This document shows, in pieces, positions 8,588 to 32,000 of a DNA stretch of 32,000 nt. This stretch comes from an uncultured bacterium (GTDB lineage Bacteria > Patescibacteriota > Gracilibacteria > UBA1369 > PNNO01). How positions within the stretch are numbered: position 1 is the first letter of the stretch; each line of letters begins with the position of its first letter. The stretch is from NCBI GenBank assembly GCA_963704705.1, contig OY969931.1, positions 480,001 through 512,000 on the forward strand, given 5' to 3'. The notes under the pieces are model-generated. The model was given only the letters and a program-made list of their open reading frames with translations, was not told the DNA's origin and made no database searches. The translations under genes and the position numbers were made by a program.

Positions 8588-8785
8588 TTATTCGACATCA
8601 GTCCAGCTGATTGCCTGAACAGGACATGCATCAATTGCAGCCTGAATATTTGCATCTTCGTCACCTGTTGGATTTATTGCTTTTGATTTACCATTATCCT
8701 GCATCGCAAACACTTTTGGACATAATTGAGTACAAAGTCCGCATCCAATACATGTATCTTCATTTACAACAGCACCTTTTGGCAT
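8588..8785 (-). CDS. Small single-cluster ferredoxin
   Basis: CIGCGLCTQLCP...ACPVQAI motif. I start at the internal ATG (MPKGAVV...). The longer track ORF (to 8884) would translate a GC-rich hairpin region whose codon usage is atypical for this genome. Confidence 0.8.
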   Translation of the reverse strand: MPKGAVVNEDTCIGCGLCTQLCPKVFAMQDNGKSKAINPTGDEDANIQAAIDACPVQAISWTDVE

Positions 8786-8814
8786 TTTTAATTGGTTAAT
8801 TATTAATGGAGTTC

Positions 8815-8867
8815 GCCCGCCAAAGGCGGGCTCACGCTTACGCTCGCGATAAGTTTTCGCTCGCGAG
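8815..8867 (-). promoter_or_regulatory. GC-rich structured element upstream of the ferredoxin start
   Basis: Hairpin GCCCGCC-AAA-GGCGGGC (8815-8831). Second hairpin CTCGCGA...TCGCGAG (8843-8867). Direct repeat CGCTCGCGA occurs twice. All of this sits in an otherwise AT-rich divergent fdx/fur intergenic region. Confidence 0.45.
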
Positions 8868-8939
8868 AGATTCGCATGGCTCATCTCTTATAGTATTTTT
8901 TTTATTCACATTTGGCAAGATTTTCATTAAACTCAAGTT

Positions 8940-9311
8940 ATGAAATATAGATATTCAGCACAAAGAGATAAAATTTTTAAAAAATTAAAGGCTTCTGGCA
9001 AGCATTTAACAGCTGAACAAATACATAAACTGGTTCCCGACATGGGGCTTGGTACTGTTTATAGAAATTTGGGTATTTTAGCGGACATGGGAAAAATAAT
9101 GAAATTCACTTTTGGTGATCGTTCTGTTTTTGAGGTCGATGAACAGCCGCATCATCATTTAGTGTGTAAAAAATGCGGGAAAATTACAAACGTTTATAAA
9201 CCTGCAAATTTTAAATGTGTTAATTGCTTGAGCTTTGTAAAGGATTTTAATGTAGATGAAGCTTATATTAACGCTTTTGGGTATTGCGCTAAATGTTCAA
9301 AAAAGAAGTAA
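8940..9311 (+). CDS. Fur-family metalloregulator (Fur/Zur/PerR class not resolvable)
   Basis: wHTH region LTAEQIHKLV...GLGTVYRNLGIL, then HHHLVCKKCGK and a C-terminal CAKC (paired CxxC structural zinc site). Confidence 0.8.
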   Translation: MKYRYSAQRDKIFKKLKASGKHLTAEQIHKLVPDMGLGTVYRNLGILADMGKIMKFTFGDRSVFEVDEQPHHHLVCKKCGKITNVYKPANFKCVNCLSFVKDFNVDEAYINAFGYCAKCSKKK

Positions 9312-11333: not shown

Positions 11334-11404
11334 TTAAATTTTAGATTTATTTAATAAATTTTTAATAATTAATTGGTGAAATCCAGCTGCTAGCCTCTCT
11401 TCGT

Positions 11405-11473
11405 GGGGGCAGTTGGACACTACGGGTCTTATCAAACTCAGTAGTAGGGGTTCGATTCCCCTTGCCTCCACCA
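11405..11473 (+). ncRNA. 69-nt tRNA-like / tmRNA tRNA-like-domain (TLD)-like element with encoded CCA
   Basis: Acceptor GGGGGCA/TGCCTCC with a G3:U70 pair. T arm AGGGG-TTCGATT-CCCCT (11446-11462). Discriminator A plus CCA. Only 34 nt lie between acceptor and T arm: no D stem, one bulged 9-bp helix, and an 8-nt loop. Confidence 0.55.
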
Positions 11474-11549
11474 GATGCTAGCATGTATAATTTAGTTGAT
11501 AAGACTCGTAGACCATCTGCAAAAGCTCTCAAATATTTGGGAGCTTTTC

Positions 11550-13187: not shown

Positions 13188-13212
13188 TATGAAGTTTGTT
13201 ATTCATGACAAG

Positions 13213-13241
13213 ACTTTATTAATGAAAGATTTTAGTGTCAA
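13213..13241 (-). promoter_or_regulatory. Sigma70-like promoter for paralog B
   Basis: On the minus strand: TTGACA (13241-13236), 17-nt spacer, TAAAGT (13218-13213), 25 nt upstream of the ATG at 13187. Confidence 0.35.
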
Positions 13242-13293
13242 ATTTGAATGTTTCACAAAGAATTTTATCTAAATAAAGCCAAATAAACAAATA

Positions 13294-14055
13294 TTAATTC
13301 TCAATCAATTGAGAAAATATATTAAATTGAGATCTTTGTATGTCAGCTATAATTTTGGATTTAACTAATACTGAACTAACATCATTTTCTTTAAAATGAT
13401 TGAATAAAATATAGTTTTCAGTATCCGAAAAAATGATAAAAGTGCCTTTAAAATTCAGGTTTAACTGATCAACCTGAGTTTTAAATTTTTTCTTAAAATC
13501 ATTGGTACAAAAGTAATCAGTATGTTTGCCGTGAGTTGTACAAATAGCATGATGTTTTGATTTTTTAATACGTAATTTTCTAAATTCGCGACCTACATCA
13601 AGTCCTCCAATTTTTGGGATGAAATTTTCAAAATCACCAAAATCCAGATTAGTTTCACCGCACCGTTGTGCAATAAAAAGGTATGGCTCAACAATTTGAT
13701 CAGGAGTATAAAAAGTTTCAATTTCCTCAACTGAATCAGCCGGACAATGTAAAAAAGGTGCGACATCCTTAATTCTACGTGCCAGTTTGCCTTTTTTCCT
13801 GCTGCTGTTTTGAAGCTGACTAACTAAAACTTTTAAAGACAATGCTTTGAAGCCTTCTTTAGCTGATTCAACCATCTTTAAATCCTCCAAACCTTCAAAA
13901 GCCCTGTAAACCGCATTCCTATCAAGGCCTGTTCTTTCAACAACTTCCCACTTTGTTTGTGCAGGATTTTTAAGAAGCTCAATATATACAAGAATTTCAG
14001 CTTCTTTTAAACCGGCTTGATTAAGTAAACTATTTAATTTTTTATATAAATTCAT
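13294..14055 (-). CDS. TrmB-like winged-helix transcriptional regulator (253 aa)
   Basis: N-terminal LKEAEILVYIELLKNPAQTKWEVVERTGLDRNAVYRAFEGLEDLKMVE fits a TrmB/MarR-type wHTH. Paralogous to the 15868-16638 product. Confidence 0.65.
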   Translation of the reverse strand: MNLYKKLNSLLNQAGLKEAEILVYIELLKNPAQTKWEVVERTGLDRNAVYRAFEGLEDLKMVESAKEGFKALSLKVLVSQLQNSSRKKGKLARRIKDVAPFLHCPADSVEEIETFYTPDQIVEPYLFIAQRCGETNLDFGDFENFIPKIGGLDVGREFRKLRIKKSKHHAICTTHGKHTDYFCTNDFKKKFKTQVDQLNLNFKGTFIIFSDTENYILFNHFKENDVSSVLVKSKIIADIQRSQFNIFSQLIEN

Positions 14056-14112
14056 TTAAAAATTAGACAGCAGGTGTATATCTAACCAGATTTTGCAAAT
14101 ATTGTCAACAAT

Positions 14113-15759
14113 TTAAGCAACCTCATTTAAATAGCACTGTTCGCAGTATACCTTTTCAGGCCTATCTGGTGAATATGTAGTTTTAACTTCAACTCCGCAC
14201 TTATCACATTTTCTGTCCCAAAGCCTAACCGGGTTGCGCAAATCGAGCCGCACTCTATGCCTGCATTCGCTGCATGTTGAAGGAGCCGGAATTCCCTGGC
14301 GCACATAAAAATTAAATTCAGGTCTGTTAATTTTGTAATTTCTGCCACAATCTTCGCATGCCAAAACTTTATCAATAATGCCTTCTTTCAAATCTTTAAC
14401 ATTGTCAGGCACAACCAAGTCTGATTTTTTATATTCTTTTGGATCTTTTTCTCTCCATCTGTAACCGTAAGTTAAGGCCTGCTCTTTTGTTAAAGGAAAA
14501 TATTGATGTGCTGTGCCCTCGTTATATGCAAAACAAGTTAATTCAGGCGGAAAGAACTTACCCCATTCTCCTGTTTTTTTCATGTGTTCAATGATTCGGC
14601 TGCGTAAAGCACGATATTCGTCTTGTTTATATTGCTTGTTTAAAATACAAAACTGTTTGTGTTTTAGTCCGTTGCATCCGAACACATCATTGCAACTTAT
14701 AATTTGTTCGCTATATTCTATATCATTACTGTCAAAAGCAAAGTATGTGAATTTTGATTTAACACATGTAAAAGTTGCAACCATGTTATAACAAACCTCA
14801 CTTTTATGGCCAAGATACGTTGAATTAAATAAATCGGTTGAATCAACTGAAAATAAAGTCTTTACAACATCCTCGCAATCATAAATGTCATAAGAATTTT
14901 TTACATTATTCGAATTATAAATATAATCTCCGGTCACATTTTCGTTGTTTACCCCATGATAATATTTCACCACACGCTTTTTTCTTAGCTCAACAAACAT
15001 TTTAAAAATCTCATTTATTCTTGCGCGGCTTCCATTTAGCATCTCCTTCTTTTGCGCAAAGTAGTCCTCTTTTGTAAGCTGTTTATTGCCGATGCAAAAT
15101 TCCTTTTTCGTAAGTCCCGTACATAAAATACATTCATTGCATCCGATACAATCACTTATAAAATAGCAGTTGGAACAGTTTTTGGAATCAAATGCATACT
15201 GGCATCCATAACTGTCATGTGAATATCCCATAAAATAACAAAGTTCGTTTTTATTGCTTATATCAATATCGAGTGAATCTTTATTGTGCATACATAAAGT
15301 ACTGTACTGAACATCTTCATTCATATCGCCTCCAAAAACCAAATAACAATTTTTATTTCCAACCGTCATATTACAATATTCGCTATTCTCTTGTTTTAGG
15401 TTTATTAAGGCCAGACGCGGAACCTCAAGCTGCAATTCTTTAAACTGTTCAAAAAATGGCCTGTTGAAGTCAAAATCGCGGCCGAATTCCATTGCATCCC
15501 ATTTGTCCGAATACCATGCTTTTGCGGAATAAACTTTATAAGGTGAATCCGGAGCGTAAATTGAAACAATGGGATCTCCGCTCGAATCACATTTGCGGTT
15601 ATATAAAACGCGTTCATTTCTAAATGCAAGACGCCCCATATGTGAACATTTAAAGCAAAGCTTTTCAGACGGAACCTGAAATTTTTCATATAATTTCAGT
15701 TCGTCTTCTTCGATAACTATATCCGCGCCGCATTGTAAGCATTTTGAATTCATACCCAA
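14113..15759 (-). CDS. Cysteine-rich double zinc-ribbon protein, paralog C (548 aa)
   Basis: Same architecture as A and B: CLQCG..LYEKFQVPSEKLCFKCS at the N-terminus, CEDCGR..CSECR..CDKCG..VYCEQCY at the C-terminus, and MKKTGEWGKFFP. Confidence 0.85.
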   Translation of the reverse strand: MGMNSKCLQCGADIVIEEDELKLYEKFQVPSEKLCFKCSHMGRLAFRNERVLYNRKCDSSGDPIVSIYAPDSPYKVYSAKAWYSDKWDAMEFGRDFDFNRPFFEQFKELQLEVPRLALINLKQENSEYCNMTVGNKNCYLVFGGDMNEDVQYSTLCMHNKDSLDIDISNKNELCYFMGYSHDSYGCQYAFDSKNCSNCYFISDCIGCNECILCTGLTKKEFCIGNKQLTKEDYFAQKKEMLNGSRARINEIFKMFVELRKKRVVKYYHGVNNENVTGDYIYNSNNVKNSYDIYDCEDVVKTLFSVDSTDLFNSTYLGHKSEVCYNMVATFTCVKSKFTYFAFDSNDIEYSEQIISCNDVFGCNGLKHKQFCILNKQYKQDEYRALRSRIIEHMKKTGEWGKFFPPELTCFAYNEGTAHQYFPLTKEQALTYGYRWREKDPKEYKKSDLVVPDNVKDLKEGIIDKVLACEDCGRNYKINRPEFNFYVRQGIPAPSTCSECRHRVRLDLRNPVRLWDRKCDKCGVEVKTTYSPDRPEKVYCEQCYLNEVA

Positions 15760-15867
15760 ATCTTATAATACTAAAAGTATTTTGCAAATTGCAAGTCACG
15801 GCAAATAAAAAATGGCTTTAAATAGTCAAAAAGCCAAATTAAATATTAACAAGCCCGCGTTAATATA

Positions 15868-16638
15868 TTAACTGTTCCAGTAGTGATTGAATTGATCCCG
15901 TTGAATTTTAAGTAATTCCGGCTGTCTTGTTATAACAACTTTTGGATCATCTTCATCGCAAATAAATAAGGTTGAACTGTCTTCGGTTATAACCATGAAA
16001 TTATCAGCAATAGGCTGTTTTGTGGTAAGTTTCATTGTTCTTTTCTCGAACGAATCACGTGATTTTAAAATATCGCCTAATTCATTGTACGGATTCATCA
16101 TTCTTACATAAATTCCACGTCGAAGTCTTTGTTGAATAAAATTACGTTCTTCGGGGCAATCAACACTCAAACCGCTTAAATTAAGAAAATTAATTACATT
16201 CCCCATTGGAAGCATTTCTTCTTTGCTCAGATTTGTTAGATTTAGATAAGCCTGTTTCATTGCATCAACACCGCATTTCACTTCAATCGGATCTTCCCGT
16301 TCTTTATCCGGATTTATAAATGATAAAAACGGATCCAGGTTTTTTAAGCCATTTTCAAGTTTTCTTAATTCTTTTTTATCATTTTGGATTTTTTTGACCA
16401 ATGATTTTAATGAAAGGGGTTTGAAAACAGATTCCTTGTTATTAATTGGAGCCGACTCAATGAGTCCTTTTTCTTTAAGATTTTTAAGAATTCTGTAAAT
16501 ATTTACAAAATGATATCCGCTAATTTCAGCTAACTTGTTAGCTGATGCCTGGCTTAATTTAAGCAGAATAAGATAGATTTTTATTTCTTCTTCTTTAAGT
16601 TCGGCCTTTTTTAATAGAGAAGTGAGTTTTTTTATCAT
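15868..16638 (-). CDS. TrmB-like winged-helix transcriptional regulator (256 aa)
   Basis: N-terminal LKEEEIKIYLILLKLSQASANKLAEISGYHFVNIYRILKNLKEKGLIE wHTH. The C-terminal end ...LLKIQRDQFNHYW parallels ...IADIQRSQFNIFS of the 13294-14055 product. Confidence 0.65.
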   Translation of the reverse strand: MIKKLTSLLKKAELKEEEIKIYLILLKLSQASANKLAEISGYHFVNIYRILKNLKEKGLIESAPINNKESVFKPLSLKSLVKKIQNDKKELRKLENGLKNLDPFLSFINPDKEREDPIEVKCGVDAMKQAYLNLTNLSKEEMLPMGNVINFLNLSGLSVDCPEERNFIQQRLRRGIYVRMMNPYNELGDILKSRDSFEKRTMKLTTKQPIADNFMVITEDSSTLFICDEDDPKVVITRQPELLKIQRDQFNHYWNS

Positions 16639-16701: not shown

Positions 16702-16800
16702 TTAATCTTATGTTAAGATATTAACCGCTTGAATAAGATATTAAATGGTTGACAAGATATTATAAAAATGTTATAAATAAAGCATGAAATTAAGATATTT
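16702..16800 (+). repeat. Phased TAAGATATTAA direct repeats (candidate operator array)
   Basis: Identical 11-mers TAAGATATTAA at 16714-16724 and 16734-16744, exactly 20 bp apart. cAAGATATTAt at 16753-16763 abuts the -35 box. TAAGATATTt at 16791-16800 lies inside the first codons. An inverted partial copy TTAATCTTA is at 16702-16710. Confidence 0.6.
16749..16777 (+). promoter_or_regulatory. Sigma70-like promoter of the ATPase gene, probably giving a leaderless mRNA
   Basis: TTGACA (16749-16754), 17-nt spacer, TATAAA (16772-16777). The ATG at 16784 is only 6 nt downstream of the -10 box. Confidence 0.5.
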
Positions 16801-19015
16801 ACATATCATTGTGCCGCAGGGTGAAGAAGCTAATCCAAAAAAAGAACAGCTTTTTCAGCAATTTTTGAATAACCTCTACAGATCAACACAAAACAGACCT
16901 ATAGGTCTTGAAATATTTGGATATAAACAATATGCATATTTTTATATGGTTGTTCCAAATGATTTATATGCGCTTGTTGAAGGACTTGTTTACAGTTCTT
17001 ATCCGGGCTGCGAAATTAAAGAGAGTAAAGATTATTGCTCCTTTGCAATTAATAAAGGTTTAAAATTTGTAGGAACCAAGATTAAACTTAAACGAAGTGA
17101 TATTTATCCTATTTTAAATTTTGATGATTTTGAAGGGGATAGTTTATCTGGACTTTTTTCCGTTATTTCTAAAATTCAGCAGGATGAGCAGATTTGGATT
17201 CAGATACTTACCTCTCCTAAACCTGACAATTGGACATATCACATGGCTCGCAGATTCAGGATGTTTACGAACAAAATTAATCGTGTTTTTAGATTAAAAA
17301 ATTATATGCGCTTAAAAGGAAGAAAAGAATTTTTTACTGAAGAAAAAAACGCATTTATCCATAAAACCGAATCACATCCTTTTAAATTTGAAATTAGAAT
17401 TGCATGTTTTGCAGAAGACCGTAATAAAGCAGCTGGGAGGCTTGAAGCTGTTGCAAAGGCTTTCTATCAATTTAATAAAATTGATTTTAATGAGTTTACA
17501 ACAACTAGAAATACCAGTAGCAAGATTTTTTTAGAAAATTATATTAAGAGAAATTTAACCGATTCCCAGCTTATTAGTGCCAAGGAACTATCTACGCTAT
17601 ATCATTTCCCAAATGCTGATCATGTGCCGCATGTTGTACATGTTCTTTCAAAAAAAGCTGAAGCACCGCAGGATGTTCCTAAAAAAAGAGGCAAGGATGT
17701 AAGCTTTTTTGGTGTAACCAATTATCATAATAATTTTGATGAATTTGGTATAAGCCGTGAAGATCGCCGAAGACATTTGTATGTGGTAGGGAAGAGTGGT
17801 ACAGGAAAAAGTAAACTTCTTGAGTTATTTATTAGTGAAGATATTAAAAATGGTGAAGGTGTAGCGGTTTTGGATCCGCATGGTGATCTTGTTGATAATG
17901 TTGTAAGAATGATCCCAGAGCATCGAAAGAATGATGTTATTTATTTTGATCCGGGTGATACTGAATTCCCGGTTGCGTTTAACCCCCTTGTTAAAGTTGA
18001 TGAGACTCAAAAAATGCAAATGACTGTTGGTTTTATAAATATTTTTAAAAAATTATTCGGAAGCAACTGGAGCGACAGGCTTGAACATGTTTTACGTTAC
18101 ACAACTTTGGCGCTTTTGGATTCTCCAAATACAACAGTGCTTTCGATTCTAAAAATGCTTTCGGATAAAAATTATCGTCAAACAATCACAGCACGAATTA
18201 AAGACTCGGTTGTTAAAAATTTTTGGGTTAATGAATTTGCGGGTTGGAGCGAAAAATTTGATGCTGAAGCAATTACACCTTTATTAAATAAAGTAGGGCA
18301 GTTTGTTGCAACAAATATGATTCGAAATATTATTGGTCAGCCGGATAACAAGTTTGATATCAGAAAAGTAATGGATGAGAAAAAAATTCTGCTTATGAAA
18401 GTGTCTAAAGGGCTTTTAGGTGAGGAAAATTCAAATTTACTCGGGGCAATGATTGTAACCAAGATTTATCAGGCAGCAATGAGTAGAGCTGATACCCCTG
18501 AAGAACAACGTGAAGATTTCTATTTGTATGTTGATGAGTTCCAGAATTTTGCAACAGACACTTTTGAAGAAATTCTTTCCGAAGCACGAAAATACAAATT
18601 AAATTTAACCATTGCACACCAATTTGTTGGTCAACTTTCACCTACAATGATCAAAACCGTATTTGGTAATGTTGGCTCAATGCTCAGCTTTAGGGTAGGT
18701 GCAGAAGACGCACAGGTTCTTGAAAATGAATACACTCCTGTATTCAAAGTTCGGGATATTATTAATCTCGCGGTTCGTGATTTTTATATAAAGATGTCAG
18801 TTAACGGTGAAGTCCGCAAGCCATTCAGCGGTCGAACTCTAGATGTAGTTAAACCGCCCGAAGATTTCACCGAAGAAATTATTGCGAATTCACGCTCTAA
18901 TTACGCAACGCCTGTTAGCCGAGTTGAATCAATGCTTGAAAAATGGGATGAATCAGGCGAATTCGACCTTAAACCAGGGGAGGCAAATGAAGAGTTTGAG
19001 GAACCTTTAATTTAA
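16784..19015 (+). CDS. VirD4/TraD-like (type IV coupling protein-like) P-loop ATPase with an uncharacterised ~330-aa N-terminal region
   Basis: Walker A VVGKSGTGKSKLL, then VLDPHGDL, Walker B FYLYVDEFQNF, and KYKLNLTIAHQFVGQL. These are typical of TraD/TrwB/VirD4-type coupling ATPases. The N-terminal third has no recognised motif. Confidence 0.7.
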   Translation: MKLRYLHIIVPQGEEANPKKEQLFQQFLNNLYRSTQNRPIGLEIFGYKQYAYFYMVVPNDLYALVEGLVYSSYPGCEIKESKDYCSFAINKGLKFVGTKIKLKRSDIYPILNFDDFEGDSLSGLFSVISKIQQDEQIWIQILTSPKPDNWTYHMARRFRMFTNKINRVFRLKNYMRLKGRKEFFTEEKNAFIHKTESHPFKFEIRIACFAEDRNKAAGRLEAVAKAFYQFNKIDFNEFTTTRNTSSKIFLENYIKRNLTDSQLISAKELSTLYHFPNADHVPHVVHVLSKKAEAPQDVPKKRGKDVSFFGVTNYHNNFDEFGISREDRRRHLYVVGKSGTGKSKLLELFISEDIKNGEGVAVLDPHGDLVDNVVRMIPEHRKNDVIYFDPGDTEFPVAFNPLVKVDETQKMQMTVGFINIFKKLFGSNWSDRLEHVLRYTTLALLDSPNTTVLSILKMLSDKNYRQTITARIKDSVVKNFWVNEFAGWSEKFDAEAITPLLNKVGQFVATNMIRNIIGQPDNKFDIRKVMDEKKILLMKVSKGLLGEENSNLLGAMIVTKIYQAAMSRADTPEEQREDFYLYVDEFQNFATDTFEEILSEARKYKLNLTIAHQFVGQLSPTMIKTVFGNVGSMLSFRVGAEDAQVLENEYTPVFKVRDIINLAVRDFYIKMSVNGEVRKPFSGRTLDVVKPPEDFTEEIIANSRSNYATPVSRVESMLEKWDESGEFDLKPGEANEEFEEPLI

Positions 19016-19169: not shown

Positions 19170-19553
19170 ATGAAAAAAATCATATATCTTGTCGGCAACC
19201 TATTAGTTGAAGAAGACTCCCTTCCAATCAAGCTCAAACCCGAACTCGAAAAGCAATTTCCACAGTTCATCTTTCGTGAATATGACCCAACCGAAGATCT
19301 GCCGCAGGATACCGAAGATCTTATTATTATCGATACGGTTGAAGGTCTGAAAGAACCGCACATTTTCACCGACATCGATGCATTTGCATCGCAAAAAGCT
19401 TATTCAATGCATGATTTTGATCTTGGATGGAGCCTTAAGCTATACAAAAAACTAAGAATGTTTAAGACCCTCAAAATAATAGGGATGCCATCAAACAGAG
19501 AGATTAATGAAATTTTCAATAAACTTAAAGATTTGCTAAAAACAAATATTTAA
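19170..19553 (+). CDS. [NiFe]-hydrogenase maturation endopeptidase (HycI/HybD-like)
   Basis: N-terminal VGNLLVEEDSLP (family GNxLxxDDGxG with an acidic ligand), IIIDTV (Asp ligand) and SMHDF (His ligand). Small size (127 aa). Lies beside the hydrogenase genes. Confidence 0.65.
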   Translation: MKKIIYLVGNLLVEEDSLPIKLKPELEKQFPQFIFREYDPTEDLPQDTEDLIIIDTVEGLKEPHIFTDIDAFASQKAYSMHDFDLGWSLKLYKKLRMFKTLKIIGMPSNREINEIFNKLKDLLKTNI

Positions 19554-20463: not shown

Positions 20464-20937
20464 TTAAATTTTACCCTCAAGGATAGAAGTATAATCTTTA
20501 AAACCGTGGCGCTTGTAGAAGCGTAGAGCGTGCTTGTTATTTGTGAAAAGTTCAACCTTCATTCGTTTAGCGCCGCGCTCTTTTAGCCATTTTTTGAATT
20601 CTTTGATTAGTTTTGTACCGATTTTAAGATTTCGATATCCATCAATAACAAACATATCGCCGAGCTGGCCAAGTTTATCAAGGGTTCTAAAGGCAGGGCT
20701 TTTAAAAAACCCGCCGCTTAAATATCCAACTGGTTCGCCGTCAACTTCCGCAATAATTGCAAAATTACTGCGTTCACTTACACGCATTTTAAAATAATCA
20801 GCGCATTTTTTACTTTTTGCCCATGTGATTTTATTTGTTGGATCAAAATTTTCATATTCCTCTTTCATCAAAAGATACATAAACTTTTGCATCAACTTAA
20901 TATCCTCTTGTTTTGCTTTACGAATTTTTACTTCCAT
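20464..20937 (-). CDS. GNAT-family N-acetyltransferase
   Basis: 157 aa. The block MFVIDGYRNLKIGTKLI...ALRFYKRHGF fits the GNAT acetyl-CoA-binding motif region. Overlaps the hydrogenase large subunit 3' end by 20 nt. Confidence 0.75.
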   Translation of the reverse strand: MEVKIRKAKQEDIKLMQKFMYLLMKEEYENFDPTNKITWAKSKKCADYFKMRVSERSNFAIIAEVDGEPVGYLSGGFFKSPAFRTLDKLGQLGDMFVIDGYRNLKIGTKLIKEFKKWLKERGAKRMKVELFTNNKHALRFYKRHGFKDYTSILEGKI

Positions 20938-22240
20938 TAAAGTGCCAGTTTAGTTTCAAAAAGTGAGTTGCGCAGCTCATACATGGGTCGTATGCGCGAA
21001 TTAGTTTTTCAATTTCGAATCTAACATGATCTTTATCTAAATTCTCACCGTCTTTATCCAAATATGATTGAACGAGATGTCTGATATCATTTGAAATATT
21101 GATTTGATTTTGCGCTGTTGGCACAACAACTTCAGCACCCTGGACAATTCCTGCATCATCCAATTTAACATAATGATATAAAGTACCGCGCGGAGCTTCA
21201 ACTACACCAACTCCTTCACCTGCTTTAAGCGGAAGTTTTTCTTTTGCAGGCTGATCAAGTTTAAGATTTTCAAGAATTTCAATAGAATGGTCTATTGAAT
21301 GTAAAATTTCAATGGCCTGAGCCAGATTATTATGATAAACATCATTTGAAGGAAAGCGTGCTAAATATTTTGCTGCGTCTTTTTTTGTTTTTTCATGAAG
21401 AGCATCGCGATTAACATTCATTCTTGCTAATGCGCCAACCATATATTCATTGCCCTGCAAAGTGTAACCGAGGGCAGTTGAATATGGGATTACAACTTCT
21501 TTTAACTGGTTTCTGAAATGTTCTTCGGGCACACAAAAACCGCCTTCGCTGCATAAAGCAGGTCCTTCCAAAAAACTGAAATCATCAGTTTTTAAGCCAA
21601 CAAATCGCGTTTCGCGTTTTAAACTGAATTCACAATTATCAAATATTTCCATTGCCAAGAATATTTTATCGCGAACTCCTTTTAATTCTTCAATAACTTT
21701 GGCAATTTCTTCTGTTGTTGGCAGTTTTACAAAACCGCCCGGCATTGGAAATGGTGCATGAACAGCACGTCCTCCAATCATTGTAGATAAATTGTTACCG
21801 GCTCTTTTTAAATCAAACATATCATGTAAAAGCTGGCTTTCTTTTTCATCATGTTCATCAAAATCCAATATAGAATCTTTACCTATTACATCAGGTAAAG
21901 CGAAAACATATAAATGAAGTGCATGATCACGAATCATTAAACCGTATGTAAGAAGCTTTCTAAGAGTTGTAGTTTGTTCTGATGGTTTGAACCCCAGAGC
22001 ATCTTCAACAGCTTCAATAGCAGCTAGCAAATGTGCGATACTGCATGTTCCGCAAATTCGCGAAAGTAGCTGTGGCACTTGCAAAAAAGGTTTACCTAAA
22101 ATTGCTTTTTCAAAAAATCTCTTATTTTCCATTATCATAAATTTCACGTCCTGAATTTTGCCGTCTTCAATTACAACATCCATATCAAGATGACCTTCGA
22201 TTTTTGATAAACCGTCGATGTTTATATTAATTTGATGCAT
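20918..22240 (-). CDS. [NiFe]-hydrogenase large (catalytic) subunit, group 3/4-like size (440 aa)
   Basis: N-terminal KIEGH and RICGTCSIAH (RxCGxCxxxH). C-terminal DPCMSCATH (DPCxxCxxH) followed by a 14-aa tail FLKLNWHFNGSKNS, consistent with endopeptidase processing. Confidence 0.85.
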   Translation of the reverse strand: MHQININIDGLSKIEGHLDMDVVIEDGKIQDVKFMIMENKRFFEKAILGKPFLQVPQLLSRICGTCSIAHLLAAIEAVEDALGFKPSEQTTTLRKLLTYGLMIRDHALHLYVFALPDVIGKDSILDFDEHDEKESQLLHDMFDLKRAGNNLSTMIGGRAVHAPFPMPGGFVKLPTTEEIAKVIEELKGVRDKIFLAMEIFDNCEFSLKRETRFVGLKTDDFSFLEGPALCSEGGFCVPEEHFRNQLKEVVIPYSTALGYTLQGNEYMVGALARMNVNRDALHEKTKKDAAKYLARFPSNDVYHNNLAQAIEILHSIDHSIEILENLKLDQPAKEKLPLKAGEGVGVVEAPRGTLYHYVKLDDAGIVQGAEVVVPTAQNQINISNDIRHLVQSYLDKDGENLDKDHVRFEIEKLIRAYDPCMSCATHFLKLNWHFNGSKNS

Positions 22241-22754
22241 TTTTGTGGTTAACTATTGAGTCGTCTTCAGGAATCACTCCGAATTCATGAAGATATTTAT
22301 CCATGGCTTTTACAAATTCGGTTTCAATCATCGGGCATCCCGGTACTTTATCATCAACCTGTACAATTTCGTGCAATGCCAATACTTTTTTGCTTTGATG
22401 AAATTGTAAAAGATAAGGAGCGATTTCTTCTTTCATTTCTTCACTGAAATTGTTTCGGTGGCCTGTTGGAAGCCCTGTAACAGCACATGATCCTATTGCA
22501 ACAATATATTTAGAATTCTCGCGGATTTTTTTAAGTTTTTCAGTATCGCGGTCTGAACAAATTGCGCCTTCAACAAATGCAACGTCAATATCGCTAAGCT
22601 CATTTTTGCTTTTTAAAACATTGCAATGTCTGAATTCCAGAATTTTCTTCCATGCCAACAGATGATCATTGAGCATCTCAGTGAACATAATTGTTGAATC
22701 TTCACAGCAAGTGAATGAAAACCAGCCGATTTTGAGTTTTTTTTGTTCAGACAT
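22227..22754 (-). CDS. [NiFe]-hydrogenase small subunit, minimal NuoB-like (proximal cluster only)
   Basis: Cys ligands FTCCEDS, AIGSCAVTG and VPGCP. About 175 aa from the ATG at 22754, which I prefer over the track's GTG at 22796 that overlaps hydG. No medial or distal cluster region. Confidence 0.75.
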   Translation of the reverse strand: MSEQKKLKIGWFSFTCCEDSTIMFTEMLNDHLLAWKKILEFRHCNVLKSKNELSDIDVAFVEGAICSDRDTEKLKKIRENSKYIVAIGSCAVTGLPTGHRNNFSEEMKEEIAPYLLQFHQSKKVLALHEIVQVDDKVPGCPMIETEFVKAMDKYLHEFGVIPEDDSIVNHKNASN

Positions 22755-22779
22755 CAAATCATATTTTACATAAAAATAT

Positions 22780-24141
22780 TTAAAAGTACAGATCACGCTG
22801 GCCCTCTTCTATAAATTTAAGACGTTCGATTGTTTTTTTGCGAACACTTTCAGAAGGTATTTGATCTACATATTTTTCAATGATTTTTAATCCTTTTGTC
22901 TTGGTGCGATCTTCCGCATAATCTTCCAAATATTCTTTTAAAGTTAAAATCGCATTTGGCCTGCAAAAATTATGTATTTCACCTGGCTTAGCAATATCCA
23001 TAAAATCCTGACCGGTTCTTCCCAATCTATAACAAGCAGTACAAAAACTTGGGAGCAAGCCTTTATCCATAATATCTTCAATGACTTCATCGACTGTGCG
23101 CTCATCTGAAGTTGTAAACTGATTGAGTTCAGGGTTTTTTCCATATCCCCCTGGAGAAGTACGCGAAGCAGCTGAACTTTGAGAAATGCCTATTTCAAAA
23201 GCTTTCTGCCTTATTTCGGGCCTTTCTCTTGTTGAAATAATCATGCCGGTATATGGAACCGCCATTCTTAAAATAGCTATAATTTTCAGAAGTTCTTCTT
23301 CACTTACAGCATGCGGCCATTTGTCTTTAACTGTTGGCGCAGGCTGAAGCCGCGGAACAGAAAAAGTATGAGGTCCAACGCCATAAGTTTTATCCAAATA
23401 AAAAGCATGAGAAAGCAAAGCGAGTGTGTCATATTTCCAGTCATACAAGCCATAAAGAACACCTAAGCCAATATCATCAATTCCGCCTTTAAATGCTTCG
23501 TCGTGAGCATTGAGTTGTCTTTCGTAATCACCCTTAAGGCCTTTGTGAAGTTTTTTGTAAGTCGGTCTGTGATAAGTTTCCTGAAATAATTGATAAGTTC
23601 CGATTCCAATTTCTTTTAATTTTGCGTAATTTTCAGCTGTTGTTGCAGCAATATTTACATTTACCCTTCGTATTTCGCCTTTGCCCTCCTTAACTGAATA
23701 AATTGTTTTGATTGTATCAACAACATAATCAATAGGGTTATTGATGGGATCTTCACCAAATTCAAGGAGCAAACGTTTATGTCCCATTCTAATTAGCAAT
23801 CTTGTTTGTTCTTCAACTTCTTCGAGTGTAAGTTTTTTTCTTTTACACTTATTCCTTGCATGAAATCCGCAATATTCACAGTCATTTACACAAAAATTTG
23901 AAATATAAAGTGGGGCAAAAAGCACCAGTCGCTCGCCATAAATCTCTTTTTTGATATACCAAGCTGTTTCAAACATTCTCGCTTCGTGTTTTTTATCTGC
24001 ATTCATTAACATCGCGGCTTCTTTAAGCCCGATTCCCTTCATTTTTTTTGCTTTATTTAGAATGATTTCAACCTGTTCATCAGTTGGATTTTGCGTTTCT
24101 TCGAGTATTTTTTCTATGATTTCGTGATCGAATTGTTTCAT
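22780..24141 (-). CDS. hydG: [FeFe]-hydrogenase maturase HydG (radical SAM tyrosine lyase)
   Basis: Radical SAM motif ISNFCVNDCEYCGF. C-terminal auxiliary-cluster motif CTAC followed by exactly 22 residues to the next C (CxxCx22C). 453 aa. Confidence 0.85.
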   Translation of the reverse strand: MKQFDHEIIEKILEETQNPTDEQVEIILNKAKKMKGIGLKEAAMLMNADKKHEARMFETAWYIKKEIYGERLVLFAPLYISNFCVNDCEYCGFHARNKCKRKKLTLEEVEEQTRLLIRMGHKRLLLEFGEDPINNPIDYVVDTIKTIYSVKEGKGEIRRVNVNIAATTAENYAKLKEIGIGTYQLFQETYHRPTYKKLHKGLKGDYERQLNAHDEAFKGGIDDIGLGVLYGLYDWKYDTLALLSHAFYLDKTYGVGPHTFSVPRLQPAPTVKDKWPHAVSEEELLKIIAILRMAVPYTGMIISTRERPEIRQKAFEIGISQSSAASRTSPGGYGKNPELNQFTTSDERTVDEVIEDIMDKGLLPSFCTACYRLGRTGQDFMDIAKPGEIHNFCRPNAILTLKEYLEDYAEDRTKTKGLKIIEKYVDQIPSESVRKKTIERLKFIEEGQRDLYF

Positions 24142-25410
24142 TTATGAGATTTTTAATTTGTCCTCAAGCATCTTATAACTCTCAGCAGTATTGTAAAGCC
24201 CGTATTTTTCCCACATTTCACGGTCCAAAGGTTGTTTTCTTTGATAGATTTCATAATGCGGCCGGTATTTTTCAGGAGTAATATCAAACATCATCGCATT
24301 TGCACCTGCTTTTATTGCTTTTTTTCTGCCTTCTTCAGGGTCCAGAGTTTCGTGAGCTGTAACAACCGGGATTCTTGTGTCCTTCATTTCAAGCCTTAAA
24401 ATAGCGATCATTTTTAGCATTAAATCGGTTGATCCGGCTTTTTCATTTTCATAAGGTGTATTTGCGCTTGGAACAAAAGGCCCCATTGAAACCATATCAA
24501 AATCATGGTCACGGATTGTAATAATATCTTCAGCTAAATCTTCAAGAGTCTGCCCCGGCAGCCCCACTATTGAGCCTGATGCAATAAAATATTTAAGCTC
24601 TTTCATGAATTTCAAGTGCTCAAAGCGCGCCTTAATAGATTTGCCCGGCAAAATACGATTGCCGTGAATCTTCGCAAACAGCTGCGGATTTGAGGTTTCG
24701 AATCTGAATAAAACTCCGTCTGCGCGTGCTTCTTTTAAGGCTTTATATGTTTCAAAATCGCGTTCGCCAATGCTTATAAAAATAAATACTTTGTGCTTTT
24801 CTTTAATTTTCCTAAGTAATTCCACAAGTTTTTCTTTTGTGTAATAAGGATCATCACCTGACTGTAATACAAAAAGTTTGTATCCTATATCTGCGCCTTG
24901 CCCAACCGCATCAACTATTTCTTCATCTGTCATTCTGTAGCGTTTGACTGCCTTGTTTTGGCATCGAAGTCCGCAATAATTACAGTTATTCACACAATAA
25001 TTTGAGAATTCAATGATACCGTGAATACAAAAAAAATCTTTTATTAAAGTTTTGCGCATCATGTCCGCTTCGCTAAAAAGCGCTTCAAGTTCAGGACCTT
25101 CGAGTTTTAATAAATATTTAATTTCATCTTTTAGAAGTTTGCGCTGTTTTGATGCTTTGACCACATCAACAAATCTTTCGCTTAAGTTTTTTGGATCGGT
25201 TTTTTGAACATGCTCCAACAATTCAAGAATTTCCTCGGCATCTTGAGGTGAAACTTTTTGAACGGCAATATCCGACATATATAAAATCCAATCTCCAACT
25301 TTAAGGTCATCAATGCTTCGAATATCTATTTCAAAATGCCTGCCATCTTTATTGATTTTGGCTTTCTTGTTATGAATTTCCTCTACTTTTGCGGGAATAG
25401 TTAGGCACAT
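24142..25410 (-). CDS. hydE: HypC-like domain fused to [FeFe]-hydrogenase maturase HydE (radical SAM)
   Basis: N-terminus MCLTIPAKVEEI...VGDWILY matches the HypC/HupF start (MC[LI]x[IV]P). The remainder matches HydE: IIEFSNYCVNNCNYCGLR...KRYRMT, VLQSGDDPYY, GSIVGLPGQTLEDL, HDFDMVSMGPFVP. Its stop abuts the hydG start with 0-nt spacing. Confidence 0.8.
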   Translation of the reverse strand: MCLTIPAKVEEIHNKKAKINKDGRHFEIDIRSIDDLKVGDWILYMSDIAVQKVSPQDAEEILELLEHVQKTDPKNLSERFVDVVKASKQRKLLKDEIKYLLKLEGPELEALFSEADMMRKTLIKDFFCIHGIIEFSNYCVNNCNYCGLRCQNKAVKRYRMTDEEIVDAVGQGADIGYKLFVLQSGDDPYYTKEKLVELLRKIKEKHKVFIFISIGERDFETYKALKEARADGVLFRFETSNPQLFAKIHGNRILPGKSIKARFEHLKFMKELKYFIASGSIVGLPGQTLEDLAEDIITIRDHDFDMVSMGPFVPSANTPYENEKAGSTDLMLKMIAILRLEMKDTRIPVVTAHETLDPEEGRKKAIKAGANAMMFDITPEKYRPHYEIYQRKQPLDREMWEKYGLYNTAESYKMLEDKLKIS

Positions 25411-29128: not shown

Positions 29129-32000
29129 ATGAATAAGCATTTAATCTTACTTAATATGTATACAACAAAAGCACTTTCGTTAAAACGCGTTGGAGCAATA
29201 GCTGCTCTAATGGTTCTTGGACTATCACTTTTGCTTACACAAGCTATTTCTGCAAATGCATCAGTAGCTGCAATAAGTAATTACAGTGTTGCTCCGCTTA
29301 CTTTTAATCCCGGTTTACAGCCCCTTATTATCAATTTTGATATTAATCAGGCAGGTAAAGTCGGGTTAGAAGTCAGTAAAGATACAGAAGTAATTAAATC
29401 TATTGCGCACATGAAAGATGTGGTTCCGGGAACTCAAACTTTTGAGTGGGATGGAACTGACAGATATGGTGCTCAGGTCGAAGAAGGTGCTTACTGGGTA
29501 AGACTTATTTATTATAATACTGACTTTACTTTATTTAAAAATACCAAAGTTATTGTTGATTATAATGCACCTTATGTTGATCCCAATGGTGGTAACAATG
29601 GCGGTAATAACGGAGGTACAACCGATGTGATTACTTCTGATTATGTAAATCCTAATCCTTTTAATCCAACTCAGGAAACAGCAAGAATTTATTTTACATT
29701 AAATGAATCAGTAGATTATTTGGATGTGAAAATTAAAGATGGAAGCAATACAATTGCTACTTTAATAAATCATCAAAGTAAAAATGCAGGTACATATTAT
29801 GTTGCATGGAACGGTAAAGACACCTTTGGAGATTATGTGGATGAAGGTCCCTATTCTTATGAAATAAAAGCGAATGGTTCTTTTGGAACAGAAACCGAAC
29901 TTGGGAATGTTGATGTTGATTACGAAGGAAATCCTCCAAATAACGGAGGTAATAACGGTGGTGATACTATTGTTGAACCAAACATTACAAACGCCTATGC
30001 AATGCCTGAAGTCATTGATCCTTCTGAAGGAGACACAATGAGAATTTATTACACTCTTGATACATGCGCTTACGTAAAAGTAAATGTAACTGACCCTTCA
30101 AACAGCAATGCGCATGTAGCTGAGCTTCAGGACTGGACATATCAGTGTGATGGTGAACATTATGTTGTTTGGGAAGGCAAAAACGACAACAACCAAATTA
30201 TGCATAATGGTGATTATAAAATTACAATTGATGCAAATAACAGCAAAGGATCAGATGAAGAAGTGGAATTTGTTGAAGTTACAGATAATAACGGAGGCGG
30301 AAACAACAATGGAAATCTTCCTGATGTTTATGACTTAAGTTTAAACAGAGATGTGTTTGATCCTTATGATCAGACAGTTACATTAACTTATAAACTGGAC
30401 GAATGTTCGGATGTAACAATCAAGATTTACGATGAAAATGATAATTATGTTGATACTTTAACTAATGCTGAAAATAAGTGTTCAGGTACTTTTACAGAAA
30501 CCTGGAATGGTGAAGATTCATCAAATAATGAAGTTGATGATGGAAATTATTACTTCAAAGTCTATGCTTTAAATGATTACGGAAGCGATTCTGAAAAAAA
30601 ATATGTTGAAGCTGATTCAAGCAGCAATAATTCAGGCAATGACAAACCGCAAATTACAAATGTAGATGTAAATCCAGATGTATTTAATCCTTATGATGAA
30701 GATACTGAATTGAAATTTAAATTAAATACTTGTGCAGATGTAAGCATTGATGTTCGTGATCAGGATAATGATGTTGTTTATGAGGTTATTCATAATAAAA
30801 ATTTATGTAGCGGTACACATTCTTACAAATGGGACGGTGAAGATGATAATAATCATTATGTAAGAGAAGATAATTATGAATTTTACATCAGAGCTGAAAA
30901 TGATGAAGGAACTGATACAGCACGAGCTGATGTTGATGTTGATTACAACGGCTACACTTACAATTCAGGAGAAAGATGTTCAAATTACCTTGATGTAAGC
31001 ACAAGCAGTGAATATTGCGATGCTATTGAATATGTAACTGGAAGAGGAATTTTCGACGGATATCCTGACGGAACATTTAAACCTTATCAGGCAATTAACC
31101 GCGCTGAAACTTCAAAAGTTATTATTAAAGGATTTGATTATCCTATACTTTCACCTGACGGAACAAACCTTGGATTCTGGGATTTATTACCTGAAGCTTG
31201 GTATATTCCTTATATAAAAACAGGTAAGGCTTACGGAATTTTACAGGGATATCCTGATGGTTCATTCCAGCCTGCAAGAACAGTAAACCGCGTGGAATTA
31301 CTTAAGATTTTCCTTGAGTCAGCAAATGTAGCATTGCCTACTTGCAATACAGCTCCTTATGTTGACACTCCAAAACAAGCGGATACAGAATGGTATATTC
31401 CATATGTTTGCTATGCGAAAATGAACAATTTAATGGATACAGACTATTATGGTCACTTTAATCCTGATAAACCAATGACTCGCGGCGATGTAGCTGAGTT
31501 ATTCTACAGATTTTCAAACCGCGATTATAATACCAATTACACTTATAACGACCCATATTATTACGACGATTACTACTACACCAACACAACTACCGGAACA
31601 GTAGCAAAATTAAGCAATGTTGAACTTTCTGATGATAAGGTTGAACGAGGCGATGCATTCACTATTTATTATAATTTGAATGTACGATCTGATGTAACTA
31701 TTGAAATCCTTGATGAAGATGGTGATGTTGTAAGAGAAATTATTGATGACTTCAGCCAGTCAGCAGGAAGATTATCAGCTCGCTTTAACGGAGAAAATGA
31801 CGATGGTGACGATTTAAGATTGGGTGATTACACTGTAAGAATAGTTGCACGTAACTATTATGGATCAGACAAAGAAGAAATTGATTTTGAAGTTGCTGAA
31901 AACGGAGGAAGCAGTAGCGACGACTACAGAGATACCAATAAATTAGTTGATGTTTACGATCTTAATCTGGATCCAGACGAGTTCGATCCTGATACTGAAG
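29129..32000 (+). CDS. Large secreted cell-surface protein with FlgD-Ig-like repeats and internal SLH modules, 3' end outside the window
   Basis: Not in the ORF track because no stop occurs before the window end; I translated it by hand. Signal-peptide-like N-terminus (ALSLKRVGAIAALMVLGLSLLLTQAISANA). At least 7 units of ~95-105 aa carry WxGxD..G..V.(D/E)G.Y motifs, joined by NNGGNNGG linkers. Three SLH-like modules (GIFDGYPDGTFKPYQAINRAE, GILQGYPDGSFQPARTVNRVE, GHFNPDKPMTRGD). An alternative start is the ATG at 29156. Confidence 0.8.
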   Translation, partial: MNKHLILLNMYTTKALSLKRVGAIAALMVLGLSLLLTQAISANASVAAISNYSVAPLTFNPGLQPLIINFDINQAGKVGLEVSKDTEVIKSIAHMKDVVPGTQTFEWDGTDRYGAQVEEGAYWVRLIYYNTDFTLFKNTKVIVDYNAPYVDPNGGNNGGNNGGTTDVITSDYVNPNPFNPTQETARIYFTLNESVDYLDVKIKDGSNTIATLINHQSKNAGTYYVAWNGKDTFGDYVDEGPYSYEIKANGSFGTETELGNVDVDYEGNPPNNGGNNGGDTIVEPNITNAYAMPEVIDPSEGDTMRIYYTLDTCAYVKVNVTDPSNSNAHVAELQDWTYQCDGEHYVVWEGKNDNNQIMHNGDYKITIDANNSKGSDEEVEFVEVTDNNGGGNNNGNLPDVYDLSLNRDVFDPYDQTVTLTYKLDECSDVTIKIYDENDNYVDTLTNAENKCSGTFTETWNGEDSSNNEVDDGNYYFKVYALNDYGSDSEKKYVEADSSSNNSGNDKPQITNVDVNPDVFNPYDEDTELKFKLNTCADVSIDVRDQDNDVVYEVIHNKNLCSGTHSYKWDGEDDNNHYVREDNYEFYIRAENDEGTDTARADVDVDYNGYTYNSGERCSNYLDVSTSSEYCDAIEYVTGRGIFDGYPDGTFKPYQAINRAETSKVIIKGFDYPILSPDGTNLGFWDLLPEAWYIPYIKTGKAYGILQGYPDGSFQPARTVNRVELLKIFLESANVALPTCNTAPYVDTPKQADTEWYIPYVCYAKMNNLMDTDYYGHFNPDKPMTRGDVAELFYRFSNRDYNTNYTYNDPYYYDDYYYTNTTTGTVAKLSNVELSDDKVERGDAFTIYYNLNVRSDVTIEILDEDGDVVREIIDDFSQSAGRLSARFNGENDDGDDLRLGDYTVRIVARNYYGSDKEEIDFEVAENGGSSSDDYRDTNKLVDVYDLNLDPDEFDPDTE

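Follow-up and report, generated by a model that had tools for sequence, protein, structure and literature searches.

In the canonical HypCDEF pathway of [NiFe]-hydrogenase maturation, cyanide is derived from carbamoyl phosphate, and the anaerobic source of carbon monoxide is unknown. HydG and HydE, both radical S-adenosylmethionine (SAM) proteins, are to our knowledge regarded as exclusive to [FeFe] hydrogenases. The second residue of HypC and HybG, a cysteine, is a ligand of the Fe(CN)2CO unit, and these proteins dock to the apo-large subunit (PMC8692609). A 2025 review of [NiFe]-cofactor biosynthesis names the anaerobic origin of CO as the most pressing question and mentions neither HydG, radical SAM nor tyrosine, while another paper of that year attributes the cofactor of every [NiFe] hydrogenase to the six Hyp proteins. 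The DNA described here, a window of 32,000 nucleotides (34% G+C) from contig OY969931.1 of an uncultured bacterium of the Gracilibacteria (Patescibacteriota), encodes a protein in which a HypC/HupF domain is fused to a HydE-type radical-SAM domain. The fusion gene is followed on the same strand by genes for HydG and for the small and large subunits of a [NiFe] hydrogenase. The best reading of the evidence is that the HydG and HypC-HydE module serves this adjacent [NiFe] hydrogenase and not an [FeFe] enzyme.

A full-text search of 8 million papers and preprints traced the HypC-HydE fusion only to a 2026 preprint on Ca. Centrionella anaeramoebae, which reports in passing a protein that fuses HydE and HypC, called unusual there, in a [NiFe] operon that also includes HybD, HypA and HypB (bioRxiv 10.64898/2026.04.11.717937). 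The architecture is apparently the same as in the window; the preprint contains no family survey, residue analysis, link to HydG or mechanism, and HypD, HypE, HypF and HydG are never mentioned in it. The fusion is not described in work on archaeal hydrogenases (PMC11216029) or in a neighbourhood analysis (PMC12727194), and the complete-genome paper on Peribacter presents a lineage without [NiFe] hydrogenase. The component families are thus known, and the comparison suggests that their wiring is new, a route from tyrosine through HydG and HypC-HydE to the CO- and CN-ligated iron of [NiFe] enzymes not having been described before.

The HypC-HydE fusion and its operon

The fusion open reading frame (ORF; coordinates in Table 1) encodes a genuine two-domain protein of 422 residues. 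Its translation starts with MCLTIPAKVEEI and contains both VGDWILY and the radical-SAM site SNYCVNNCNYCGLR, exactly as the first-pass annotation of this DNA had reported. An in-frame TAA lies five codons 5' of the ATG, with no other start codon between, and Cys2 is therefore the true second residue. Since no stop codon separates the HypC and HydE domains either, the concern that a downstream start might leave two separate genes falls away.

The N-terminal part belongs to the HypC/HupF family, as had been proposed. Residues 1-65 cover the whole 65-position PF01455 (HupF_HypC) model (E=3.6e-16, 59.5 bits for the full fusion, gathering score 28.5), and residues 1-80 alone reach 63.9 bits. The NCBIfam model TIGR00074 (hypC_hupF) is matched at 51.9 against a cut-off of 48, and a search of PDB sequences aligns residues 1-70 to T. 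kodakarensis HypC (2z1c, 2e-8). Like HypC, HybG and HupF, the domain begins with Met-Cys, with an invariant Cys2, shows a predicted beta-domain followed by a helix, and is associated in genomes with [NiFe] large subunits, HypA/HypB and endopeptidase. It differs from them in being joined to a radical-SAM enzyme, in the absence of His51 and in having no HypD partner in the loci searched.

The remainder of the protein is of the HydE type. Pfam places Radical_SAM (PF04055) at residues 133-295 and BATS at residues 313-390, the NCBIfam model TIGR03956 (rSAM_HydE) gives 272.2 bits, a narrow margin over the equivalog cut-off of 254.6, and residues 84-392 align to T. maritima HydE (TmHydE) at 1e-72 in the PDB sequence search. 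Structure-based identity to TmHydE (3cix, 7o1o, 7o1t) is 38-39%, and the catalytic residues and the pairing with HydG are shared. Because residues 84-127 align with the N-terminal helices of canonical HydE (TmHydE residues 7-51), the linker comprises about 18 residues (66-83) and not about 60, as had been estimated earlier. An AlphaFold2 (AF2) model built from 16 family members has a predicted local distance difference test (pLDDT) score of 85.9 and a predicted template modelling (TM) score, pTM, of 0.87. In this model, the HypC domain is predicted to form strands 7-13, 16-21, 24-29, 41-45 and 48-53 and a helix at 55-64 (block pLDDT 76-90), and the HydE barrel superposes on TmHydE with a Foldseek TM of 0.84-0.90.

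The fusion is widespread. The proposed survey for further examples found that 120 of the 120 best protein clusters, from a search of 5.8 billion proteins, carry both PF01455 and PF04055; their identities range from 50 to 100%, and they stem from assemblies of NCBI, ENA, JGI and Logan. In a scan of one genome per GTDB species, the complete fusion was present in 53 genomes; these include Patescibacteria (Peregrinibacteria/Peribacteria, Moran-, Jorgensen-, Falkow- and Berkelbacteria), anammox Planctomycetota (Kuenenia, Brocadiaceae, Wunengus) and metagenome-assembled genomes (MAGs) of Thermodesulfobacteriota/Deltaproteobacteria/Syntrophales. When 1.84 billion representatives at 50% identity were searched exhaustively, 21 of the best 150 had a HypC-like N-domain. 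NCBI names the fusion proteins merely '[FeFe] hydrogenase H-cluster radical SAM maturase HydE'.

On the sequence data, and in view of this distribution, the chance is negligible that separate hypC and hydE genes were brought together through faulty sequencing or assembly, or through a wrongly called start codon. The same unbroken ORF recurs in independent NCBI, ENA, JGI and Logan assemblies at 45-100% identity, with the linker conserved. Moreover, a start at 117 or 118, the sole internal methionines before the barrel, would cut off N-terminal helices that have aligned counterparts in canonical HydE. On the conserved uninterrupted ORF and the stop just upstream of it, an artefact of gene calling or assembly was rejected.

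The genes of the window operon, in the order fusion, HydG, small subunit, large subunit and GNAT acetyltransferase, follow one another on the reverse strand with zero spacer or overlaps of a few bases. HydG scores 573.8 bits with TIGR03955 (cut-off 312) and aligns over its full length with T. italicus HydG (4wcx, E=8.6e-166). It is canonical throughout, with CX3CX2C at residues 84-91 and an intact C-terminal CX2CX22C at residues 367-393 (22963-23043); the difference from known HydG lies in its surroundings, since it is coupled to a [NiFe] operon or, in some relatives, fused to HypC-HydE, rather than coupled to HydA/HydF.

The large subunit is closest, among PDB entries, to the sulfhydrogenase alpha subunits of T. 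kodakarensis and P. furiosus (4.6e-68). It carries the motifs RICGTC (61-66) and DPCMSCATH (418-426), the latter followed by a 14-residue C-terminal extension, and it is called only group 3b-like because its NCBIfam scores fall below the equivalog cut-offs. The best NCBIfam matches of the small subunit are sulfhydrogenase delta subunits; it retains only the proximal-cluster cysteines (pattern CC...GSC...GCP) and lacks the C-terminal cluster domain. The window hydrogenase thus consists of alpha and a truncated delta subunit, and the beta and gamma subunits of the four-subunit 3b architecture were not found in the window, while both are present in 12 related loci. The enzyme looks minimal beside the many related loci that have all four subunits.

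Residue signatures and gene neighbourhoods

In the HypC domain of the fusions, the MCLTIPA N-terminus is invariant in the family alignment, and Cys2 occurs in 54 of 54 proteins. In canonical HypC, the histidine of the VHxGFA motif, His51 in E. coli, belongs to the HypCD iron site. The equivalent column of the fusions holds I, A, T, M, V, L or S in all 54 cases and His in none, whereas His is present in the references from E. coli, T. kodakarensis and Shewanella. This loss fits a HypC domain that no longer pairs with HypD.

In the HydE domain, the changes are concentrated at a few positions. When 17 fused and 122 unfused cores were aligned with TmHydE and all columns were ranked by their discrimination between the two groups, Tm 54, 52, 134 and 155 came out as the top four. 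The first of these is His in 17/17 fused proteins and Arg in 112/122 unfused ones; at Tm 52, all 17 fused proteins have Cys where the unfused have His, Tyr or Phe; Tm 134 is Phe in 15/17 against Thr in 104/122; and Tm 155 is Gly or Ala in 17/17 against Arg in 102/122. In other words, the signature C-H-[FYI]-[GA] marks every fused HydE in the comparison, and x-R-T-R is the overwhelming pattern of the unfused. Both HydE classes, the window protein included, keep the cluster cysteines, E58, E161, M224, M291, T269 and K309; among the 17 fused proteins, the cluster cysteines, E58, E161 and M224 are found in all, M291 in 16 and K309 in 11. The earlier description of a full-length HydE with a radical-SAM site therefore holds for the domain and its CX3CX2C motif, but not for the product-exit pocket, which is remodelled.

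Residues R54, T134 and R155 of HydE contact the CN ligands (PMC11826987). The S3 exit site of HydE, which faces HydF, is lined by a threonine and two arginines, the mutation of one of which impairs maturation; a mononuclear M224-Fe(CO)2CN species was seen at S3, and it is not known whether dimerisation takes place on HydE or on HydF (PMC10114646). R54/T134/R155 are likely the threonine and two arginines of S3. If so, the fused HydE keeps the substrate-processing half of the enzyme, and it is precisely the hand-off site that has been rebuilt. The M224-Fe(CO)2CN species at S3 is the kind of unit that a HypC thiolate could accept.

The surroundings of the fusion were surveyed in 54 non-redundant full-fusion loci (up to 10 kb on each side) from Patescibacteria, anammox Planctomycetota and Thermodesulfobacteriota/Deltaproteobacteria MAGs. 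The ORFs were clustered without a prior gene list, and Pfam or E. coli reference proteins confirmed the recurring neighbour clusters, antisense noise aside. The [NiFe] large and small subunits recur in 27 loci each, FAD/NAD gamma and 4Fe-4S beta subunits in 12 each, HypA and HypB in 8 each, and two types of maturation endopeptidase in 6 and 5. At least one of these [NiFe]-specific genes is present in 32 of the 54 loci. Of the 50 loci whose sequence reaches far enough, 39 have a same-strand HydG directly 3' of the fusion.

The gene order in Planctomycetota runs fusion, HydG, HypA, HypB, small subunit, large subunit and hybrid histidine kinase (e.g., loci L035 and L040). The large subunit there terminates exactly at DPCLVCTVH, without an extension, which indicates a sensory-type [NiFe] enzyme. 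Since the fusion module is found both with 3b enzymes and with this sensory type, it accompanies more than one [NiFe] class. In the anammox-related loci (L035 5392..10074; L040 and L041), the fusion-HydG-HypA-HypB genes and the [NiFe] enzyme are followed by a hybrid histidine kinase/response regulator, and the enzyme looks, from this arrangement, like a HupUV-like H2 sensor in anammox bacteria.

For comparison, 80 loci around canonical unfused HydEs from metagenomes (0.86 Mb) were analysed identically. No [NiFe] large or small subunit, HypA, HypB, HypC or endopeptidase was found in any of them, HydF occurs in 27, and HydA H-domain seeds match 17. The [NiFe] association of the fusion thus stands at 32/54 against 0/80 (Fisher's exact test, p=1e-16). 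For HydF, sought with a seed from the control set, the counts are 0/54 and 27/80 (p=1e-7). Other clusters recurring in the control loci, identified by eye and with no Pfam check, are NuoE-like (14), an 87-residue protein (10) and a likely ammonia-lyase (4).

The joining of parts goes further in some relatives. HypC-HydE-HydG occurs as a single polypeptide in P0129 (881 residues, starting MCLTIPGK...) and in P0134 (906 residues), the latter from a second, divergent subfamily that starts MCYAIPGK.... Both triple fusions sit inside group-3b [NiFe] operons. The order in one (L069) is beta, gamma, several other genes, triple fusion, an ORF of 188 residues, small subunit and large subunit, with HypA slightly further; the other (L070) runs beta, gamma, small subunit, large subunit, HycI, a cNMP-binding protein and the triple fusion. 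Additionally, P0154 (L074), an unfused HydE with the residue signature of the fusion family, is flanked by the C-terminus of a [NiFe] large subunit (...AYDPCMSCAAHFLKVRWNEA*) and by HydG.

Fusions of maturases are not new in themselves. A HydE-HydG fusion was seen here (P0149), and HydEF is known from green algae; like HypC-HydE, these join consecutive maturation enzymes, but they stay within the [FeFe] system, whereas HypC-HydE crosses between systems.

These results bear on the interpretation offered in the first-pass annotation, namely that the [NiFe] and [FeFe] maturation systems are connected here and that the HypC domain could take over the scaffold role of a missing HydF. The connection itself stands, as a genuine and conserved covalent fusion, but it runs opposite to the direction implied. 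Because the conserved partners are [NiFe] subunits, HypA/HypB and endopeptidase, [FeFe]-type radical-SAM maturases appear to have been recruited to [NiFe] maturation. The scaffold role for an [FeFe] enzyme is not supported by the genes: the window is without an [FeFe] hydrogenase, and the [FeFe] H-domain occurs in 1/54 loci.

It is accordingly improbable that the two proteins serve the maturation of an [FeFe] hydrogenase whose gene lies elsewhere, the HypC domain being a carrier that replaces HydF. The canonical HydE loci show the opposite association, both triple fusions lie within [NiFe] operons, the HypC family is known solely from [NiFe] maturation, and it is specifically the HydF-facing exit site that has been rebuilt. 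Such a role would agree with the absence of HydF from the fusion loci, with the conservation of M224 and M291, and with the fact that both radical-SAM proteins pass the NCBIfam equivalog cut-offs for [FeFe] maturases; it also has in its favour the single H-domain locus, L001, although no HydA occurs in the window. In L001, where no HydG adjoins the fusion, a short [FeFe]-hydrogenase-like gene (12109..12829) is found some 10 kb away from it; this gene matches Fe_hyd_lg_C at 110 bits and carries the motifs PCxxKxxE and CxGGCxxGP. Matches of the HydA seed in other fusion loci were set aside: they fall in the C-terminal region of the seed (query ~390-660), those in L035, L040 and L041 land on the histidine-kinase gene, and L001 alone matches the H-domain part.

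Still a little less probable is unrelated chemistry, in which the HydE domain makes another sulfur or iron product (e.g., an Fe-S or other cofactor) and is merely co-regulated with hydrogenase genes. The covalent tie to a HypC domain with an invariant N-terminal cysteine speaks against it, as do the tight coupling or fusion to canonical HydG and the adjacency of HypA/HypB, protease and hydrogenase subunits across distant phyla. What would speak for it is the remodelled pocket, the diverse chemistry of the HydE relatives BioB, PylB and HmdB, which score secondarily on the fusion, and the 22 of 54 loci that show no hydrogenase genes nearby.

A proposed route to the [NiFe] iron unit

Together with the assignment of the module to the [NiFe] enzyme, it is probable, with modest confidence, that HydG and HypC-HydE form a maturation system that stands in for HypD, HypE and HypF. 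E. coli HypD, HypE and HypF queries gave no match in the window and about 60 related loci (tblastn, phmmer), and a search of the fusion loci for HypD, HypE and HypF signature motifs returned nothing credible. Among 951 [NiFe] large subunits, HypE (953), HypD (615) and HypF (600) are among the commonest neighbours, and HypA follows with 527 (PMC12727194, Table 1). As HypE, HypD and HypF are commoner than HypA in this baseline, their total absence beside HypA/HypB in the fusion loci is notable.

From the architecture, conservation, gene associations and residue signatures observed, we infer every chemical step of the proposed route, as well as a genome-wide absence of HypD, HypE and HypF. HydG would cleave tyrosine and, on its C-terminal cluster, assemble a cysteinate-Fe(CO)x(CN)y synthon, as its near-canonical sequence suggests. 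The HydE domain would then take up the synthon in its conserved upper pocket, where the 5'-deoxyadenosyl radical would remove the cysteine backbone; the retention of CX3CX2C, E58, E161, M224, M291 and K309 points to this step. Instead of being passed to HydF, the resulting mononuclear iron unit would be held at the rebuilt exit site (Cys128, His130, Phe211 and Gly232) and subsequently handed to Cys2 of the tethered HypC domain, a step suggested by the family-specific substitutions and by the fusion itself. The HypC domain may dock on the apo-large subunit and deliver the iron unit in the manner of HypC/HybG, after which HypA/HypB, seen in related loci, would insert nickel and an endopeptidase would cleave the C-terminus.

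The presumed final steps, in which a HypC-type Cys2 delivers CO/CN-ligated iron to the apo-large subunit and HypA/B nickel insertion and proteolysis follow, are shared with the canonical HypCDEF pathway. The differences are that HypD, HypE and HypF were not found in the loci searched and that, in their place, there is a radical-SAM source based on tyrosine for both CO and CN. It is a tentative proposal, less secure than the role of the module itself, that several lineages (Patescibacteria, anammox Planctomycetota, Thermodesulfobacteriota and a Legionellales symbiont) assemble the [NiFe] Fe-CO/CN unit without HypD, HypE and HypF altogether, with CO and CN produced from tyrosine by HydG, a HydE with a Cys/His exit site, and insertion by the tethered HypC.

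Several observations weigh against this replacement of HypD, HypE and HypF. Their absence covers the 32-kb window and about 0.9 Mb of related loci, and the genes could lie elsewhere. Moreover, loci in which a stand-alone HypC lies beside [NiFe] genes (L060, L061, L064 and L067) are also without HypD, HypE and HypF within 10 kb, so that their local absence alone is weak evidence. The known product of HydG is Fe(CO)2(CN)(Cys), while a [NiFe] enzyme needs Fe(CN)2(CO); the window HydG is fully canonical, which leaves the ligand swap unexplained. Since M224 and M291, implicated in iron dimerisation, are conserved, a di-iron product might still come from the HydE domain. In addition, 22 of the 54 loci have no [NiFe] gene in the sequence covered, 11 of 50 have no adjacent HydG, and in one the [FeFe]-like gene occurs at a distance of 10 kb. 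The 32-kb window yielded neither HypA nor HypB, and that R54/T134/R155 form the S3 trio is something we infer.

The strong [NiFe] association would fit equally well with an auxiliary role, in which a full Hyp set is encoded elsewhere and HydG with HypC-HydE gives only a part, for example CO or Fe-CO, to the HypCD scaffold, CN being provided through HypE/HypF from carbamoyl phosphate. Such a role is unlikely, though it deserves more weight than the two alternatives discussed above. It would accommodate the mismatch between the 2 CO and 1 CN of the HydG product and Fe(CN)2CO, it would speak to the origin of anaerobic CO that the 2025 review singles out, and the search for HypD, HypE and HypF covered the window and, at related loci, no more than 10 kb on either side. 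However, HydG makes CN as well, and HypE and HypF would then be redundant. The His51 expected at a HypCD site is lost in 54/54 fused HypC domains, and the reduced genome of the symbiont lists no HypD, HypE or HypF. Furthermore, HypA/HypB and endopeptidase adjoin the module in many loci and HypD, HypE and HypF never do, though they are common [NiFe] neighbours in general (PMC12727194).

If HydG and HypC-HydE do replace HypD, HypE and HypF, the six-Hyp pathway would lose its 'universal' standing, these organisms would possess a defined anaerobic source of the CO in a [NiFe] enzyme, and there would be an evolutionary bridge between [FeFe] and [NiFe] maturation. The conserved, multi-phylum module, in which radical-SAM enzymes are fused to a [NiFe] iron chaperone and embedded in [NiFe] operons, offers a concrete and testable alternative CO/CN route in [NiFe] maturation. 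As a compact kit of two or three genes, it might also find use in the heterologous production of [NiFe] hydrogenases. The signature Cys-x-His, Phe, Gly (TmHydE 52/54/134/155) sets the fused HydE class apart from true [FeFe] maturases, a useful distinction given that annotation names all such proteins '[FeFe] hydrogenase maturase HydE'; HydE and HydG matches should not serve as markers of [FeFe] metabolism in genomes of candidate phyla radiation (CPR) and anammox bacteria.

Further features of the window and related loci

The features of the fusion gene and of the genes around it are collected in Table 1. None of HydA, HydF, HypA, HypB, HypD, HypE and HypF was found in the 32 kb of the window, which at 34% G+C resembles a small genome of the CPR type.

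Table 1. Positions of the HypC-HydE fusion gene, its domains and key residues, and the neighbouring hydrogenase-related genes in the window.
Feature	Coordinates	Strand	Evidence
HypC-HydE fusion gene, 422 aa + TAA	24142..25410	-	ORF and translation; Pfam and NCBIfam matches; conserved architecture
HypC/HupF domain, residues 1-65 (predicted OB-type beta-domain and helix)	25216..25410	-	PF01455, TIGR00074, TkHypC 2z1c, AF2
Cys2 codon, presumed iron-binding N-terminal Cys	25405..25407	-	Cys2 in 54/54 fusions and all reference HypCs
Tyr44-Met45 at the canonical HypC 'VH' position (E. coli His51), His absent	25276..25281	-	HypC alignment
Short linker, residues 66-83	25162..25215	-	From HypC model end to TmHydE alignment start (residue 84); lower pLDDT
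HydE-type radical-SAM domain, residues 84-422	24145..25161	-	TIGR03956; TmHydE 1e-72; Foldseek TM 0.84-0.90
CX3CX2C radical-SAM cluster motif (C139, C143, C146)	24973..24996	-	Aligns with TmHydE C63/C67/C70; invariant in family alignment
Cys128-Ile-His130, fusion-specific, in place of TmHydE His52 and Arg54	25021..25029	-	Column ranking, fused vs unfused HydE
Phe211	24778-24780	-	With Gly232 and His130, in place of the R54/T134/R155 trio
Gly232	24715-24717	-	With Phe211 and His130, in place of the R54/T134/R155 trio
HydG, tyrosine lyase making CO and CN, 453 aa	22780..24141	-	TIGR03955; 4wcx; ATG directly after the TAA of the fusion
[NiFe] small subunit, truncated, 175-189 aa (probable ATG 22754, giving 175 aa)	22227..22796	-	PF01058 Oxidored_q6, E=1.3e-19
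[NiFe] large subunit, group 3b-like, 440 aa	20918..22240	-	PF00374, E=5.1e-33; best NCBIfam ShyA/HydA alpha
GNAT acetyltransferase	20464..20937	-	PF00583, E=1.3e-18; 20-nt overlap with the 3' end of the large-subunit gene
Probable divergent hydrogenase maturation endopeptidase, 127 aa, tentative	19170..19553	+	PF01750 HycI, E=0.0013, 19 bits, below gathering score 23

The endopeptidase candidate, encoded on the forward strand, repeats its sub-threshold HycI match in five of six orthologues, and all six lie in loci with a [NiFe] large subunit. Its identity stays tentative, because the HycI matches are all below the threshold and a profile of the six sequences found no match among PDB sequences. 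The GNAT gene appears to be co-transcribed with the large-subunit gene, given their overlap, and it is conserved only in the closest relatives (four related loci).

Carrier-like domains are also found in other arrangements. A stand-alone HypC-like ORF (9745..9996) lies directly 5' of the fusion in L046, a Thermodesulfobacteriota-type MAG, so that some genomes have both free and fused HypC. Several stand-alone HypCs with the same MCLTIPA N-terminus occur beside [NiFe] genes in loci of Patescibacteria and Thermoplasmata (L059-L067). Furthermore, two sets of other HydE clusters (P0148, P0166, P0169 and P0204; P0146, P0163 and P0167) combine the canonical R-T-[RN] residues with other N-terminal extensions of about 95-110 residues, one type of which has a conserved 'G.(V/I)C..A' motif. 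Owing to these non-HypC extensions, carrier-like N-domains seem to have been acquired by HydE more than once.

Elsewhere in the window, a gene for a single-cluster ferredoxin (8588..8884) lies beside that of a Fur-family regulator (8940..9311). Three paralogous Cys-rich proteins of about 545-550 residues (9681..11333, 11550..13187 and 14113..15759, reverse strand), with many CxxC pairs and weak treble-clef zinc-finger matches, are interleaved with two TrmB-family regulators (13294..14055 and 15868..16638, reverse strand) over 9681..16638. A very large repeat-rich, cell-surface-like ORF (29129..32000, forward strand; more than 950 residues seen) runs off the 3' end of the window and has homologues in three related loci (cluster C32). 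Beside the hydrogenase cluster, 16784..19015 on the forward strand encodes a VirD4/TraG-type coupling-protein homologue of 743 residues (T4SS-DNA_transf, TrwB_AAD_bind), which may reflect either mobile DNA or the type-IV-like systems that are common in CPR bacteria.

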